Below, piece by piece: positions 12,001 to 24,000 of a stretch of 54,214 nt of DNA; the first letter of the stretch is position 1; each line of letters begins with the position of its first letter. The position numbers were made by a program. The stretch comes from Candidatus Hydrogenedentota bacterium (GTDB lineage Bacteria > Hydrogenedentota > Hydrogenedentia > Hydrogenedentales > JAEUWI01), in contig JAXMOL010000050.1 of the NCBI GenBank assembly GCA_034669905.1, forward strand, positions 1 to 54,214, written 5' to 3'.

Positions 12001-15000
12001 CGGACGTCGGGGCCGTCCCCCTCTTCACAGCGATTCCTGGCAGACCAGGAGCCCCACGTTAAGGCCGCAAGCAAGCTTGCTTAAAAAGAGCAGCAGCAAG
12101 CTGCCGCACCGCAGGCGGGGACTGCACCGACGCAGTTCGCCCGCCCCAAGGAAAAAAGCCAGGGGGCAAGCCCACCCCAACGGCCCCTACCCCGAACACC
12201 CGGACGTCGGGGCCGTCCCCCTCTTCACAGCGATTCCTGGCAGACCAGGAGCCCCACGTTAAGGCCGCAAGCAAGCTTGCTCAAAAAGAGCAGCAGCAAG
12301 CTGCCGCACGCCGGGGTTTTCGCCCCCTCGCTTCCCTTATCCCTTCGCCATGAAGGCAATAATCGCCTTACAAAAGGCCGGTAAATCCCCCGGACGTCGA
12401 CTCGAAATGAAGTGGCGGTCCACCACCACCTCCGCGTCCTCAAAAATCGCTCCGGCGTTGACCAGGTCATCCTTAATCCCTGGCGACCCCGTCACCCGCA
12501 CCCCGTGATAAACCTTCGCCGAGATGGGGATCCATCCTCCATGACAAATCGCCGCCGTAAGTTTTCCTGCCGCCGCAAAATCGGCCACCAACGTCAACAC
12601 CGCCGGGTCCCGGCGCAAGACATCCGGCATGAAGCCACCCGGCACGATGAGTCCGTCAAAGTCCGCCTCCAGCATGTCATCGATCCGGGCATCCGAAACA
12701 CAGGGGTAGCCATGCTTTCCCCCATACTTCACCCCCGCCTCCGGCCCCGCGATTGTCACCTTGGCACCCGCCTCTTCCAACCGTAACTTGGGATACCACA
12801 GCTCCAGGTCTTCATAGATCTCGCCCACCAATATCAATACGCGCTTATGCAACAGGGGGTTATCTTCCAACATGGCACTATCCTCCAGAAAAGTTTAAGG
12901 TGATTCAGGGTATGAACAGGTATCCAAAGGAAAAGCGGGGGCGCCCCCATCCCGGAAACACCCCCGCACGATACCTCTGACTTCAGCCTACGCTAATCCC
13001 CACCCGACGTCAACAACAAGACGCGCTCTCAGATAACGCCATACCGCTGGACGAGACACTATATTTTCCATTCTAAATTCTAAATTCTAAATTCTAAATT
13101 CACTATTCTAAATTCCCGCCTACCGGCGGCGACGGCCAATCAATCGGCTGATCCACACATCGATGTAGTCCTCGCCGATGGTACGCAGCAAATCAATCCC
13201 CTCCTCCCGCGCCAGCTTGATGGCCCGCATACGCGCCATCGAGCGCGCACGGGATTTCTCCTCCTCCGTCAAGCGCCCATCCGCACGCCCCGCCTTGATC
13301 GCCTTCACATAGGCCTGGTAGGTCCGCTCCACGCCGGCCTCCAAAGCAAGCAAAGCGGCACGATAGCGCCGCTGCTGCCAGCGCTGGTACCGGTCACTTG
13401 CCTTGAAGCCCGACCACAAGCCCCCCACGACCGTACCCACAATCGTCATTCCCAAATCCAAACCCATCGCTTCCATTCCCTCCATAGCCATTCCCTTTCC
13501 CGAACCCAAACCTACATCCGGACTAAACAAAGGTCCGCACGTCCTCGATATAGCCATTTACCCCATCGTCCACATCCTTGATGGACACCATCCCCGGCCG
13601 CAACACCAGGGTCGCCAGCGCCAGGGCACCACTATCCACCGCCGGTGCCACGGGACTCGCTGCCTCCGCCCCCGTCTTGATGGACACGCTCCACGTCGCC
13701 AGGTCGGCCTGCACCAGGTCAACCCGATCGTTGACGGATGGCACCTCCACCAACGCGGTAGGGGTCGCCTCCGAAAGACGATAGGGATAGCCGCCAATAA
13801 AGGCATAGCCCGGCGACACGGTCACGCCAAGTCCCACCGGTGCCGTCGCTTCCACCGCCAACTCCCCGGGCCCCAGGTTGCGCAAGACGCCATCGCCACC
13901 ACCCCACGCCTCGGCAATCAACAAAAAGGCCATCTCCAACGCCGCCTCGATACGGTCGTCCCACTGGTTCAACTTCGCGCTCGACACCGGTCGCTCTTCA
14001 AATACCCACTGGGTCTTCGTATAGGACGGACCCTGAATCGACATCACTCATTCCTCCTCTTAGTCCAGGTGATACCCGACATCCAGCCCAATCACGTCGT
14101 CGTCCAGACGAAACTCGAAGAAGGCCGACAAACTGTCCTGACTGCGCGTGATAAAGCTCAGCGGAGACGTCACCGATCGATAGGGAGAGCCCAACTCCAA
14201 CTGGGTCTCCACGGTCTCGCCCGCCAGGCGGTGGACAACACCCGTAACCCGCGCCACGAAGCGTTCGCCAAAGTCATCCGCCCACCCCGCCGCGACGACG
14301 CTGTCCCGCTCCACCAGGGAGGCGCCCCGAAATTCCAGGAGATCCCCCACCGCTGCCGAAGCGCTTCCCCGATAGAACAGGGCGCGGCCCACCCGCGTTG
14401 GCCAGGCCAGGTCGCGCAAAATCCCCTGCCCCATCCGGGCGGCGTCATCCACCCGGCTCAACGCAAAAAACGGAAAGTAGCGAAAGGCCGTCCCCAATGC
14501 ATCGATACTGTCCTGCTCCGCGTGGTACCCGTCCACCGCGCCCTCCTGGGGATTCCCGACCAGGCGCAAAAGATTGACCAACCCCTCCTGCATCCGCCCC
14601 ATTTCGACCCCCGTCTCCACCGGATCGACCCGCACCACCGCGTCGATGTCCGTTCCACGGCGGACGGAGACCGCGCCATCCAGGTCCACCGAAAAGACAA
14701 AGCCATCGGCCAGGGTGACCAGGGCGGCAAGCACCTCCAGCACACCACCCCGGGTTTCAAAGGCCCCCACCACCGTGGTACAGGGCGCGATAGAGTCCGT
14801 GTGTACCCCCCTGTAGGAATAGAACTCCTTCAGGGCCAACGCGGAATCATGGTAACGGCCATCCGCATAGAGATAGACATCAGCCAGCCCCGCTTCCACC
14901 AGCCCTGCATTGAAACATTCACCGCCCCCAAAGACCAGCCCCAGGTAGCGACCGTAGGCATCCACCCGGTCATCATAGTGTCCGCTACCATCCACATGGG

Positions 15001-21000: not shown

Positions 21001-24000
21001 CAAGGCCACTCAACTTGTCCCGCAGCGCGGACAGGTTCGATTGCATCCGCTCCTGGTACGCCTCCACACTTTCGCCCCGCGCCCGCTCTTCCACGGCATA
21101 TTGAACATGCAACTTGTTCCACCCCGCATTGTGGGTTGCCTTCGCCATGTCTTCCATCAAACGTTGCTGAATTTTCACGACAAAAGGAATAGAGCGCAAC
21201 ATGGAACGCCCGTAGGGATTGGTGCCTTCGCGGTCGAGTCCCACATAGATAAATCGCTCCATCGGCAGCTTGATCGATTGCCCACCGACCAGCTGATAGG
21301 CCTGGAGCTGCCCGTCTTCCCGACGAAAGCGGATAGTCCACACATCGATGGGCACCACATCCCAAATGGACTCACGGCTCTGCGACAGCACAATCTCCAC
21401 CGCAGCGGCACCGTAGGTGAAGAGCGACGTATAGAACACATCGAGGAGGCCCTCCATACCCCGGTCCCCCGAATTTACCCGCTTGTCGAGGGCCGTGATG
21501 AGACGGCGTGCCCGCGCTTCCGCCGCCTCCGAACTGACCGACGTGAAGTCGACCGTGTAGCCCGTCTGGCAAAGGCGCTTCCATGTCCATATCGCATCAG
21601 ACACATCGGGGATGGCATCCCGCAGAAAGCGATAGACATCGAGCATGGCAAAGGGCGTGTCATTGGCCATCCCCACATAGGATCCCCAGGCCCCATCCCA
21701 TGGCCCCCCATCCGCCGTGCGGCTGACCGTCTTGAAGACCCCCGCCGGTGCCTTGGGTGCCGGACGCACCCCCCGGGTCTTCTCCCGCCGGAACCAATCC
21801 TTCCATCGCCCCATACCGTTCCTCTCCCTCTGCTGTGGGCCACGGGCCCGCCTGACTTCCAGCTATAGGGATCGGTCATCTACCCCAAAGGGCGCTAATA
21901 AGGGAATTTCAAAGGACTTACAGAATCAGCGGCTCTCGATGCTTTCGCAACACGCCCCCGGCGGGGACTGCACCGACGCAACACACCACGCCGCACCTAC
22001 ACCAACCCGCGGGCGAGAGCCCCCCACCGGACACAGCCAAGCCCAACCGGACGTCGGGGCCGTCCCCCTCTTCAAGCAAGACTCCACCCAACCCAAGGCA
22101 TCCTGCCAACGCTCGTCCACCCACCAATGCCGCAAGCAAGCTTGCTCAAATAAAGCGACAGCAAGCTGCCGCACGCCACGGAGTTTCCCCAGCTGACTTC
22201 ACAACAGGTCGAACGTAGTCAGGAGACGCGTTTTGGGGCGGGTCCACGACACGCCCCCGGCGGGGACTGCACCGACGCAACACACCACGCCGTACCCACA
22301 CCAACCCGCGGGCGAGAGCCCCCCACCAGACACAGCCAAGCCCAACTGGACGTCGGGGCTGTCCCCCTCTTCAAAACGACGAAGGAGTACCGAAGCACAC
22401 GTGAAGGGTGCCACCTATACGGACGTGAGGGACGTACGGCCTTGGGGGTGAAAGCCCTTACTCCGCCGCGGCCGCCTCAGGCTCCTTGCTCCCCGCAGGT
22501 GCAACTACCGCGCGCATCGCACCGCCATCCACGGTGAACAACTGGAGCGGAAGGACCGGCGCCGTTGACGGAATGGCATAGCGCGTCCGTCCCCAGGGCA
22601 GGGTCTCGCCGACTCCCGGCACCATCTCGCCGGAAACGAGATAGTCCAACGGGTCATCCACGAACAATACGAGTTGGGACCGAATCGACCAGTCCAATCC
22701 GAAGCGGCCCGTTACCCCCACGCTCCAGCGAGACGCACGCAAGGCCCGTCGCCATCGATGAATCGCGCCCATACGGCCATCCACCCCCACATCCGTTTGG
22801 GAAAGTCCCGCACCGAAAAGCATGTACCCATCTTTTCCAAAGGAAAAGGCATGCTCGGAAACAATCGGATTTCCAGCCGCACGACAACGCGCCACTTCTT
22901 CCCCGTCTGGACAATAAAATACCGGCACGGCCATTTCGGACCACTGCGCCTCCAGCGCCACATACGACGCCTCCTGCCCATCGGTCGTCAAGGTACCCAC
23001 CAGAAAAACGAGCGCGGCATCCGTTGCCCGGACTTCGCTGACCAGGGATTCCGAAAAAACGGCAGCACCCGGTTGCCCGTCTGAATCACGACGAACCACC
23101 GCCACGGAATACGCCTCAGGGAATTCCGGAAGCACGTGGACCCTTCCCGATGGCAGCGTCGATTCGTCCGCCGGGCCGGCGACGAATTCATAGCGCCCGG
23201 CGGGCAGCTCCTCGGGGATACGGACATGGCCTGCGCCAATCGGCAGCGCCCCCTTCGGCGCGACGACCGGCAGGGGGTACCGCTCCAAGCCCCGTATCAG
23301 GGTGACGGTTTCTCCGGCCCCTTCCCCAACACCGAACAGACCGCCGGGTACAACGACCGCGGGACGACCAGGCGCTGGTCCACCGACTGCGGCAGCTGCT
23401 CCCAGCCCATGCATGCCGGCAACCCACAGCAACAGGCTCGTGATTACAAGGCGTCGTGTCATCCGTCGTGCTCCGGGCGCCAGGCGGGAAAGGCCGCTGC
23501 ACCATCCTGTTTACCTAACGCTTCCAGCTCCTTGCCCTTGTCGGAAACCACATAAAGTTGTGGCACCCCCGTGCGATCGGAGACAAAGGCCACCCATTTC
23601 CCATCGGGCGACCAGGCCGGCGACCAGGCCTCCCCTTCGCCCACGGCCAGGGGGCTCACCAGCGCGGTGTCTGTAAATACCTGATAAATACCCCGAGGGC
23701 CATCCCGAAAGGATTCGAAGGCCAGGCGCCGCCCCTCGGGCGACCACACCGGATTCCAATCTGCGGCACGGTGGTTGGTCACATTCGCAATACCCCGCCT
23801 TCCCAGGACGAAGATCTCCCGGTCCCCGCCTTCGTCGGATTCATAGGCAATACGATTGCCCTCGCCCGGATCGTCCAGCCGGTAGGGCCCATAACGATTC
23901 CCGGTCGGAGCACCTGCGTCGAAGGCGGGCTCTTCCCAGTTGGGCTCCAGTTGCCACAGGACCGCCTTCAAACCGGCCCGCTCCGGGTCTGCGAGCCCCA

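Follow-up and report, generated by a model that had tools for sequence, protein, structure and literature searches.

Domesticated phage head and packaging genes across the phylum Hydrogenedentota, and the case for a gene transfer agent-like particle of independent origin

What is a compact run of phage head genes doing in the chromosome of a bacterium from an uncultured phylum, and why has it been kept? We analysed the whole 54,214-nt contig JAXMOL010000050.1 (the window; assembly GCA_034669905.1, Candidatus Hydrogenedentota bacterium, genome label G000), for which a survey's finding had proposed a domesticated head-and-packaging system, most likely a gene transfer agent (GTA). Domestication is supported by retention of the genes, selection acting on them, congruence of their tree with that of the host, intact ATPase and nuclease motifs, and searches of 41 cassette loci that gave no integrase, replication or tape-measure match. 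The reading we favour, at a probability of roughly 0.55, is a GTA-like particle of independent origin that the host regulates and cell lysis releases, known here from its genes alone. A literature search found no paper on this Hydrogenedentota system. GTAs are known from a few cultured groups, and their true prevalence is called open in reviews (PMC11841831).

The head cassette of G000 occupies positions 13120-21814 and comprises 11 genes, all on the minus strand and in the order previously described; the terminase genes lie on another contig:

20567..21814, minus strand: portal protein, 415 aa, first cassette gene (phrog_3753, E 3e-48; Portal_Mu, E 2e-6; 38/40 loci)
19755..20432, minus strand: prohead protease-like protein, 225 aa (phrog_16951, E 4e-36)
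19540..19737, minus strand: coiled coil of ~64 aa with a C-terminal membrane helix (33/40 loci; hydrophobic 19-mer in 33/33)
18812..19525, minus strand: LigD-type 3'-phosphoesterase domain plus helical scaffold-like domain, 237 aa (PDB profile match)
18207..18587, minus strand: capsid cement/decoration protein, 126 aa (phrog_4588, E 9e-7; 40/40 loci)
17047..18096, minus strand: HK97-type major capsid protein, 349 aa (phrog_3922, E 3e-52; PF25209)
16514..16927, minus strand: predicted head-tail adaptor of HK97 gp6 / Mu gp36 type, 137 aa (fold match; open frame from 16996)
15801..16484, minus strand: distal tail protein Dit, 227 aa, right behind the adaptor (phrog_33, E 3e-17; PF22768)
15247..15810, minus strand: baseplate hub, N-terminal part (frame broken in G000)
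14060..15283, minus strand: baseplate hub, remainder, with inserted staphylococcal-nuclease (SNase) domain (PF00565)
13523..14047, minus strand: stand-alone fibre/baseplate anchor domain, 173 aa (phrog_20556 baseplate protein, E 6e-8)
13120..13482, minus strand: holin-like protein, ~120 aa, last cassette gene (phrog_13712; open frame from 13557)
C65:32771-36135: TerS-like gene, 3D domain (PF06725, E 2e-22) and large terminase TerL (phrog_2, E 4e-23)

A six-point definition of GTAs (bioRxiv 2022.06.10.494566) asks for proteins derived from tailed phages, mostly random host DNA as cargo, full endogenisation, inability to package the whole of its own gene set, mostly vertical inheritance and delivery of the DNA to other cells. 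These proteins derive from tailed phages, the first of those criteria: portal, capsid, Dit and TerL were identified by profile, adaptor and hub by fold. No close virus was found for capsid or TerL (best phage capsids 26-32%, best viral TerL 27-37%), the TerL tree covering these copies and phage relatives only. Position and family context suggest the protease name, phrog_16951 members being located between portal and capsid in phages L073 and L168; in L045 and L046 the gene is joined to the scaffold C-domain. The coiled-coil protein, with weak matches to phrog_1193 hemolysin and phrog_689 holin (E 0.004-0.03, two of four members), may be an XhlA/holin-like lysis accessory. The LigD-type domain reported for the scaffold was recovered by profile against the PDB (3p43, E 5e-8; 3p4h, E 3e-6), and its residues H29, H36, D38, R40 and H69 are invariant (36/36).

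Fold comparison adds to the description of the next gene, formerly just connector-like: VIA-align ranks 1-15 for its predicted structure (pLDDT 84.7) are exclusively phage neck or adaptor chains, headed by HK97 gp6 (Z 9.1, rmsd 3.2, 91 aligned), and Foldseek returned no match at E<=0.001. The spacing between adaptor and Dit has a median of 16 bp and a maximum of 224 (n=33). The hub frameshift already noted in G000 is now located to a six-G run near 15283-15290; relatives, in which that site has no G run, encode the hub as one frame of 577-585 aa, and all 31 loci having it keep a single frame (in one it is shorter and joined to the gene that follows), so that the split is confined to G000. The model of the intact G068 hub (pLDDT 89.5) matched eCIS hubs (E 3e-11), Mu gp44 (E 2e-9) and SNase (E 1e-6) by Foldseek, reproducing the predicted gp44-type hub with its nuclease insertion. 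The anchor, of fixed length and related to N-terminal domains of long virion proteins, is found in 30/40 loci, and in G034 its gene has moved elsewhere (L366). Across the phylum, adaptor, Dit and hub occur in 98, 99 and 90 of 135 genomes, respectively.

The terminase locus contains the three genes earlier assigned to it, an unrelated esterase on the opposite strand separating the 3D gene from TerL. Walker A, Walker B and nuclease aspartates of TerL are invariant in 21/21. The genes had been called single-copy, which stands for the cassette; TerL, present in 123/135 genomes, has more than one match in 35 of those 123 and is therefore not strictly single-copy. Zinc-finger TerS-like genes also occur in multiple copies (up to 12 matches per genome), along with spare terminases, behind the upstream motif described below. 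Of the two names originally given on size and position, that of the holin gains weak profile support and that of TerS does not: the TerS-like protein matched no helix-turn-helix or other family (Atlas best 0.86), and position, size and the shared motif suggest its identity.

Relatives of the holin-like protein matched phrog_13712 holin in two of six cases (E 4e-5 and 0.007), and only 5/29 passed a strict hydrophobicity cut; presumably the resemblance is to the LL-H type. An endolysin-like gene (phrog_894 endolysin, E 9e-6; H108, D118 and H156 invariant) adjoins it in 61/135 genomes, preceding the holin-like gene where both are present, and occurs in 10/10 genomes of family f8. None was found in G000 or in any of the 14 other genomes of its family, an absence that counts against the lysis-released, GTA-like reading. 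A further gene, unlinked to the cassette and present in 84/135 genomes, encodes fast-changing, mosaic fibres with lectin and carbohydrate-binding domains, and has been lost along with the hub. Relative to the earlier account, the endolysin-like and dispersed fibre genes are new, as are the extra terminases and the shared motif.

How widely, and by what route, has the system been kept? The capsid gene occurs in 115/135 phylum genomes at 60-94% identity, in 78/86 of high quality and in 14/15 families, as one copy; where two matches turned up, in four genomes, they were partial pieces on separate contigs. Its absence from 8/86 high-quality genomes we count against a GTA-like reading. Among 40 of the 115 capsid loci, picked for long contigs and representing 12 families, 38 preserve the portal-protease-scaffold-cement-capsid order (L065 is cut short by the end of its contig; in L040 the upstream genes are missing); the distal genes follow in 34 (adaptor), 33 (Dit), 31 (hub), 30 (fibre-anchor) and 29 (holin), and TerL adjoins the cassette in three, being unlinked in 37. 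Integrase and replication probes (five proteins, no family library) matched nothing in 41 cassette loci. Phylum-wide occurrence, core synteny, an unlinked terminase and the lack of integrase or replication genes had all been claimed, and each is upheld. The G132 cassette breaks off past the fibre gene at an apparent insertion sequence, and a few genomes have single in-frame stops.

Purifying selection was reproduced, with dN/dS of 0.02-0.40 across ten genome pairs; for the capsid it is 0.038 against G069, the same as for rpoB. In 38 genomes the head-gene tree and the tree of rpoB, a single host marker, have 16/35 splits in common (random mean 0.2), 14 of them well supported among 21 and 19 such splits; four well-supported pairs conflict, and patristic distances correlate at r 0.66. 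The head genes, said before to group by family, thus largely follow the host: the cassette is mostly vertically inherited and co-diversifies with it, as the fifth GTA criterion asks. As to the third, the system is fully endogenised, its loci, at least three in number, being separated by as much as megabases in single-contig genomes. In G068 the cassette lies at 5.58 Mb, TerL at 7.11 Mb and the fibre gene at 7.73 Mb, and in both G068 and G034 the parts spread over more than 2 Mb, dispersal that makes self-packaging implausible.

The families searched yielded no stopper, terminator, tail tube or tape measure, which counts against the favoured reading, as DNA would have to be retained and injected without them. 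Tube families PF06199 and PF18906 were found in 0/5 genomes, as was the one sheath family, PF04984 (control positive in 3/14); the phrog_45 control was silent, and valid tube and sheath tests comprise three families in five genomes. Tape-measure searches gave no match in G068, G034 (both single-contig) or G092, nor did a probe in 41 cassette loci, in agreement with the build without tube or tape measure put forward before, though divergent forms could escape such searches. Adaptor, Dit and hub are contiguous in every locus, leaving no space for a stopper, tube or tape measure. Loci with head genes only had been noticed, and such forms do exist; their spread was understated, hub and fibre being missing from whole lineages (0/10 in f8, 0/2 in f12, most of f3). 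Some hub-less lineages also lack Dit and almost any adaptor trace, with capsid, portal and TerL still selected: in G053/G055, which have no adaptor, Dit or hub, dN/dS is 0.05, 0.12 and 0.07, respectively. Loss is stepwise from the tip inward and ends in head-plus-lysis forms still under selection, which are hard to square with injection.

A promoter-like motif is common to the regions upstream of portal, small-terminase and fibre genes. A version learned from the sequences preceding portal genes scored at least 12 before 8/13 TerS genes (shuffles 3%) and 9/12 stand-alone fibre genes (shuffles 10%); a model built without G000 sites placed the G000 TerS site at rank 6 of 14.9 million positions, and the anchor gene that has moved in G034 came to light through a strict pattern. 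Against shared regulation count the G000 portal, which lacks the motif (score 1.8), and the strict pattern, which exceeds its control in only 2/10 genomes.

What the sequences establish directly is gene identities, retention, selection, largely vertical descent, intact catalytic residues, a shared upstream motif and gene spacing; the favoured reading goes beyond these as follows. A single phage would have been domesticated at or before the last common ancestor of the Hydrogenedentota. At least three unlinked loci, namely head cassette, terminase pair and variable fibre gene, would be switched on by the host through a common regulator, probably an alternative sigma factor. Proheads would assemble around the portal, and the terminase, in whose small subunit no DNA-binding domain was recognised, would load them non-specifically with chromosomal DNA. 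The adaptor would shut the head, and a Dit ring and hub trimer would attach straight to it, forming a stub that has neither tail tube nor tape measure and bears a nuclease at its tip; swappable fibres would pick target cells, and holin and endolysin would lyse the producer and release particles for delivery to a recipient. The hub nuclease, apparently active from its residues, could at that position destroy the cargo. A fuller version is doubtful, if conceivable: a phylum-wide GTA of independent origin, with the scaffold-borne, end-healing phosphoesterase entering the head, Dit and nuclease hub on the adaptor, and one host promoter class, that bred its own parasites, namely one-gene zinc-finger TerS elements and spare terminases using the same promoter and steering the motor to package their own neighbourhood.

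If the favoured reading is true, a separate domestication in about nine of ten high-quality genomes of an uncultured phylum would rank among the broadest GTA cases, and as the broadest outside the well-studied groups if particles with host DNA are found. With forms ranging from a full tip down to head-plus-lysis, a natural deletion series, one can test the old question of whether GTA genes persist for transfer or for a head and terminase role alone. A tube-less build, if true, would show the minimum size of a phage-derived delivery device; the multicopy TerS-like genes, if read correctly, would parasitise a phage motor that has itself been domesticated; and the shared motif offers a handle on induction.

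Split loci, tail-less particles and a TerS without DNA-binding domain are reported across RcGTA (PMC6854486) and FpGTA (PMC12946183). RcGTA (Rhodogtaviriformidae) likewise has caudoviricete-derived head and packaging genes over several loci, vertical descent and no replication genes (bioRxiv 2022.06.10.494566; PMC11841831; PMC6854486), with a TerS lacking an evident DNA-binding domain (PMC6854486); it has a 49-nm tail, whereas searches for a stopper, tube or tape measure gave nothing here. Set apart by gene content and description rather than sequence comparison, the Hydrogenedentota system differs further in its hub nuclease, scaffold phosphoesterase, terminase unlinked in 37/40 loci and phylum. 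FpGTA (Faecalibacterium) shares two unlinked operons, such a TerS, and holin and endolysin; its 40-nm particles, in which a tail is not visible, hold ~9 kb of host DNA (PMC12946183). By description, it has podovirus-type tail proteins and is limited to one genus (PMC12946183), in contrast to a siphovirus-type Dit and gp27/gp44-type hub across a whole phylum. Head-only clusters of Rickettsiales/Holosporaceae, RcGTA homologues in reduced endosymbiont genomes, also keep capsid and portal under selection after tail gene loss, with TerL away from the main cluster and function open (PMC9254644); the Hydrogenedentota forms, unlike these, reside in genomes of 3-7 Mb and have retained lysis genes. cf-PICIs carry their own capsid and packaging genes and form tail-less particles but are mobile, self-packaging islands (bioRxiv 2025.02.11.637232), whereas the present system is vertical and split over megabases. 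PBSX of Bacillus subtilis is likewise a domesticated phage that lyses its producer; its packaging of host DNA is described in PMC12946183.

Several other readings draw on the same evidence. A PBSX-like tool for competition or matrix building, which packages DNA, binds targets by its fibres and delivers or displays the nuclease, or releases protected DNA into biofilms, would explain the nuclease residues retained in 27-30 of 30 hubs, the lectin-bearing mosaic fibres and a hub fold nearest to eCIS hubs, and PBSX does package host DNA without injection (PMC12946183). We consider it rather unlikely: neither sheath (5/5 genomes) nor tube was found, hub and fibre were lost first whereas conservation is strongest in head and terminase, and the eCIS rank says little because gp27-type hub folds occur in all tail types. 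The head-plus-lysis forms of G053/G055, the endolysin-like gene throughout f8 and the proposal that endosymbiont head-only clusters were repurposed (PMC9254644) would suit a role inside the producer, with terminase-driven cutting and packaging of DNA plus lysis serving to kill the cell in a programmed way or to interfere with phages (through decoy heads or mis-packaged phage DNA) and transfer incidental; adaptor, Dit, hub and fibre are selected in most lineages, which points to a target outside the cell and makes this role unlikely.

The missing tail parts invite two further explanations. Divergent stopper, tube and tape-measure genes elsewhere in the chromosome would make this a conventional tailed GTA, and TerL, the fibre gene and the G034 anchor are dispersed too, with valid tube and sheath tests covering three families in five genomes. 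That seems quite improbable given the contiguity of adaptor, Dit and hub; the top 70 motif sites in G000 held no tail-like gene on inspection, and 60 fetched strict-pattern sites only anchor, TerS-like and unexplained genes. Alternatively, heads might acquire their tails from co-occurring phages or prophages, which would spare the system encoding a tube and tape measure. Foreign tails render tail-less cf-PICI capsids infective (bioRxiv 2025.02.11.637232), and tape-measure genes do occur in a separate element of G000 and at loci of G091. We think this very unlikely, since the cassette has kept its own distal tip genes and no stopper, presumably the opposite of the set required to dock a ready-made tail, and single-contig G068 and G034 gave no tape-measure match. 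A decaying or ordinary resident prophage would fit the G000 frameshift, the G132 interruption and the scattered stops, and is scarcely credible for a single-copy locus in 14/15 families with dN/dS far below 1, rpoB congruence and no integrase or replication match in 41 loci.

Known classes were set aside on similar grounds: a temperate prophage, for want of integrase or replication matches in 41 cassette loci and of a tail module, at a locus neither mobile nor patchy; and a cf-PICI, with no integrase or replication genes beside the cassette and an unlinked terminase. PBSX has a contractile tail, and the tail sheath by which it, contractile tailocins and eCIS are recognised was not detected (one family, PF04984, five genomes). 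Encapsulins are HK97-fold shells without portal or terminase, both of which, TerL being intact, are conserved here with the capsid. Separately, a real integrated element is present at C30, in contrast to the cassette.

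The 11-gene head cassette and separate terminase locus claimed in the survey's finding are both present in the genome under study (G000), with a gene order and profile names that agree with the claim. Their genes, and a fibre gene elsewhere in the genome, are:

Window 21814 down to 13120, minus strand: portal, protease-like, small coiled-coil/membrane protein, phosphoesterase-scaffold, cement, capsid, adaptor, Dit, hub, fibre-anchor domain, holin-like
C65:32771-36135: 140-aa TerS-like gene, 3D-domain protein with a lipoprotein-like start, TerL
C1:261506-262183: fibre gene of the conserved-anchor family

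Portal, capsid, cement, Dit and the SNase insert are named by profile matches. The hub gene lies in two pieces in G000, perhaps through a sequencing error or a strain-level loss; a programmed, conserved frameshift was rejected, the G run being absent from relatives. Related intergenic repeat units flank the cassette on both sides (window 11880-12280 and 21900-22420), and short tandem repeats lie between its genes near 16990-17040 and 20440-20560. In another genome of the phylum, G091, a second cement gene stands between portal and protease (L034:12967-13323), and capsid and adaptor are separated by a transposase-like gene.

Ranks 1-15 for the adaptor model were HK97 gp6, Mu gp36 and other neck proteins, at Z scores (7.5-9.1) that alone are modest for a helical adaptor protein, though the ranks are uniform; Foldseek with this model returned nothing at E<=0.001, and a PDB sequence search with the adaptor alignment gave no useful match. 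The hub model matches gp27/gp44-type hubs together with SNase, and an all-against-all profile search with Dit retrieved only unnamed relatives lacking context. Between the adaptor and Dit genes the median gap is 16 bp (n=33, maximum 224), and in 16 of 31 loci Dit overlaps the hub; from this close packing it follows that the cassette contains no stopper, terminator, tube or tape measure. Family searches in five genomes revealed no tube or sheath, and no tape measure was found in the two single-contig genomes (G068, G034). A tape-measure match in G000 was not counted as part of the system because it sits in a separate integrase element.

Hub residues D191, D193, R209, D214, E217, D284 and R288, kept in 27-30 of 30 sequences, align with the catalytic residues of SNase, whose roles we assume them to share; in the scaffold N-domain the metal-site residues of LigD phosphoesterases are kept in 36 of 36, presumably in their usual roles. 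SNase generates 3'-phosphate ends, the very ends that LigD-type domains remove. An obligate nuclease-phosphoesterase partnership was discarded because the two domains are lost independently, the phosphoesterase being present without the hub in family f8 and missing from two loci that keep the hub (L045, L046).

Across 135 genomes of the phylum, 129 of which yield the yardstick rpoB, TerL was found in 123, capsid in 115, Dit in 99, adaptor in 98, hub in 90, fibre in 84 and an endolysin-like gene in 61. Losses are nested, starting at the tip and proceeding inward: genus g15 keeps the hub and has lost the fibre; genera g8, g10, g12, g13 and g14 retain only adaptor and Dit beyond the head; and genera g9 and g11 and families f12 and f8 retain head and lysis genes, with a weak adaptor remnant in two of ten f8 genomes. 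The minimal form, seen in three loci titled Ca. Hydrogenedens, comprises portal, protease, scaffold, cement, capsid, endolysin-like gene and holin. Cassette flanks are common to the family of G000 and different in other families. A scan of 185,579 genomes gave 106 capsid matches, and the 80 listed, at 62-94% identity, are by title Hydrogenedentota (55), Nitrospirales or Nitrospiraceae (17), uncultured bacterium (5) and one each from the FCB group, Planctomycetota and Bathyarchaeia. Named sources of capsid homologues are mostly Hydrogenedentes, and the titles outside Hydrogenedentota are probably mislabels or misbinned contigs.

Nei-Gojobori dN/dS over ten genome pairs lay between 0.02 and 0.40 for all genes, values that are only approximate, since many pairs have a dS close to 1 or saturated. 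The capsid value against G069, 0.038, equals that of rpoB; between the head-only genomes G053 and G055 the values for capsid, TerL and portal were 0.05, 0.07 and 0.12. When trees of five head genes and of rpoB were compared for 38 genomes (G106, G094 and G016, with partial data, being excluded), 16 of 35 splits were in common, against a random mean of 0.2, and 14 were shared among those with support >=0.95 (21 and 19 in the two trees). Four supported split pairs, involving G117, G118 and G134, are in conflict, and patristic distances correlate at r = 0.66. The mostly hub-less families f8, f12 and f3 join on long branches in the head tree and not in that of rpoB, a grouping that may be an artefact of faster evolution.

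Three parts of the system had been overlooked in the survey's finding: the fibre gene, the endolysin-like gene and a promoter-like motif. Fibre proteins combine a conserved N-terminal anchor with mosaic C-terminal domains, lectin and carbohydrate-binding folds among them; at least 7 of the 40 loci have the gene within the cassette, and elsewhere it stands alone. It is almost always present once per genome and is missing from f3, f8 and f12. A signal-like hydrophobic start, unexpected in a virion protein, occurs in 7 of 18 non-cassette or newly fetched copies. In 22 of 40 loci the endolysin-like gene comes right before the position of the holin; the family of G000 (f1) lacks it. Two PHROG matches among five members, together with a sequence motif, we take to indicate an M15/zinc peptidase; a Pfam search gave no peptidase match and a PDB sequence search with the alignment no useful one. 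Two unrelated proteins lie behind the promoter-like motif in f1, at G000:C83:8734-9519 (L408) and, in G068, at L350:1557-2489. Neither has a PHROG or Pfam match; both seem to us to resemble lysozyme-family enzymes, and substitute lysins would be our guess.

The motif consists of TGCAAC, 13-17 bases, then TATAG or T-purine-purine-purine, which we take to resemble ECF-sigma promoters. Its training set was 29 of the 36 regions upstream of the portal, and it was found upstream of TerS in 8 of 13 cases and of stand-alone fibre genes in 9 of 12 (parsed from 20 loci); rates were 0-18% at internal genes except capsid (12/40), and 2-10% in shuffles. G000 has it before TerS and the fibre gene and not before the portal. 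Strict sites exceeded the reversed control in G048 (37 vs 2) and G068 (21 vs 9), with no excess in eight other genomes. A regulator of these loci was looked for among the 33 sigma-70-family genes of G000, none of which has a strong upstream motif (best score 12.5). Many of the 37 sites in G048 (L379-L407 and 26 further sites) have no clear ORF downstream and some form divergent pairs about 1 kb apart; they may be remnants of small mobile units. G068 has several scattered copies of a family of proline-rich ORFs that share a conserved start, each directly behind the motif (L354, L361, L373, L367); the ORFs have no family match, and their conserved part no homologue in G000.

Twenty loci with secondary TerL copies were fetched. 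Eight of the copies, about 60-64% identical, fall within the domesticated clade as a group of their own (support 1.0), and eight at 31-34% group with a separate phage family, of which L105, inspected over its full length, carries its own structural genes. The latter loci (L102-L108, L111) form a distinct Hydrogenedentota prophage family that has recombinase-like genes and, behind the presumed portal, a protein of 1,500 aa. The sister group of the domesticated TerL comprises L100, L109 and L101 (42-44% identity) together with L110; in these small modules HNH genes adjoin TerL and a TerS-like gene, two also have replisome-organizer-like genes, L101 includes adaptor and fibre homologues, and the fetched stretches hold no capsid gene. 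In G014 (C71:6580-12079), rpoB is immediately preceded on its own strand by TerL.

Close to four TerL of the 60-64% type is a gene for a 430-525 aa protein that bears a Cys/His-rich HGG motif; in L112 it is joined to TerL as a fusion. HGG proteins have weak matches to the TerS family phrog_9231 (E 0.003-0.006); the TerS profile does not match them, so they are at most candidate homologues of TerS, and an Atlas search for TerS gave only leads under 0.9. The promoter-like motif precedes the HGG gene in all four loci scored. The family is found in 31 of 135 genomes (one marginal), with up to 12 matches, and not in G000. Because these genes are patchy, multicopy and tied to the promoter and motor of the host packaging system, they look like parasites of that system; if so, packaged DNA would get into new chromosomes.

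Searches with capsid, hub and TerL found no close virus. IMG/VR gave no match to a single-protein capsid query; viral contigs yielded two matches to the capsid alignment, of 7.7-7.9 kb, both the head-only cassette itself, and none to the hub alignment. Among 80 viral TerL loci, L168 alone has portal and protease in common with the system, and the closest phages to share this family of capsid or portal (L072, L168) have full tail modules. A gut scaffold titled 'bacteriophage' (L073, MT835508.1, 15914-23289) carries TerS and TerL along with members of this system's portal, protease and capsid families, after which come small genes with no recognised tail functions; it may represent a comparable domesticated cassette from a different phylum.

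We favour, at a probability of roughly 0.55, a host-induced, GTA-like particle that packs chromosomal DNA, ends in an adaptor-Dit-hub stub and is released by lysis. The host would induce all loci together; a terminase of low specificity would fill heads with chromosomal DNA; the stub, carrying variable fibres, would cap them; and lysis of the producer would free the particles. As guesses, the tip nuclease may clear matrix DNA en route to the recipient, and the phosphoesterase may be packaged and heal DNA ends. The main difficulty is posed by the head-only lineages, in which DNA would have to be taken up without being injected, or the particle would have to serve some purpose within the producing cell.

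A role as a weapon or in the matrix, set beside the nuclease and the carbohydrate-binding folds on the one hand and the losses of hub and fibre on the other, is unlikely. A function inside the producer, which would suit the head-only lineages and sits less easily with the hub and fibre that most lineages keep, is a shade less probable. The missing tube and tape measure could also mean tail genes that are present and unrecognised, which the close gene packing leaves improbable, or tails borrowed from elsewhere, which is more doubtful still. As for a decaying prophage, the broken hub frame of G000 might recall one; beside the low dN/dS values and the trees we give it hardly any credence.

Three of the six points of a GTA definition, in the portion of its source available to us (bioRxiv 2022.06.10.494566), are found here. 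On a fourth, packaging of its own full gene set, the loci lie dispersed over more than 2 Mb in G068 and G034, which makes self-packaging implausible. The two most important points concern the packing of mostly random host DNA and its delivery to other cells; the system is therefore a candidate GTA and not a member. The closest parallels, to the extent covered by the accessible parts of these sources, are RcGTA (PMC6854486), FpGTA (PMC12946183), head-only endosymbiont clusters (PMC9254644) and cf-PICIs (bioRxiv 2025.02.11.637232). The cassette is real, domesticated and undescribed in the literature searched, where neither a GTA nor a capsid cassette was found reported for Hydrogenedentota; subscription journals and supplements lay outside that search, and the system could yet appear in a supplementary table of candidate GTAs. 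The terms 'capsid' and 'gene transfer' are absent from the text of PMC10866078.

G000 also carries a 10-kb integrated element (C30:27449-37193, L409), seemingly alongside a tRNA gene, in which no portal, terminase or tube was recognised; it might conceivably borrow portal and terminase from the domesticated system. With an integrase, HTH regulator, replication initiator, its own capsid and cement, and protease/scaffold-like and tape-measure-like genes, it looks like a satellite.
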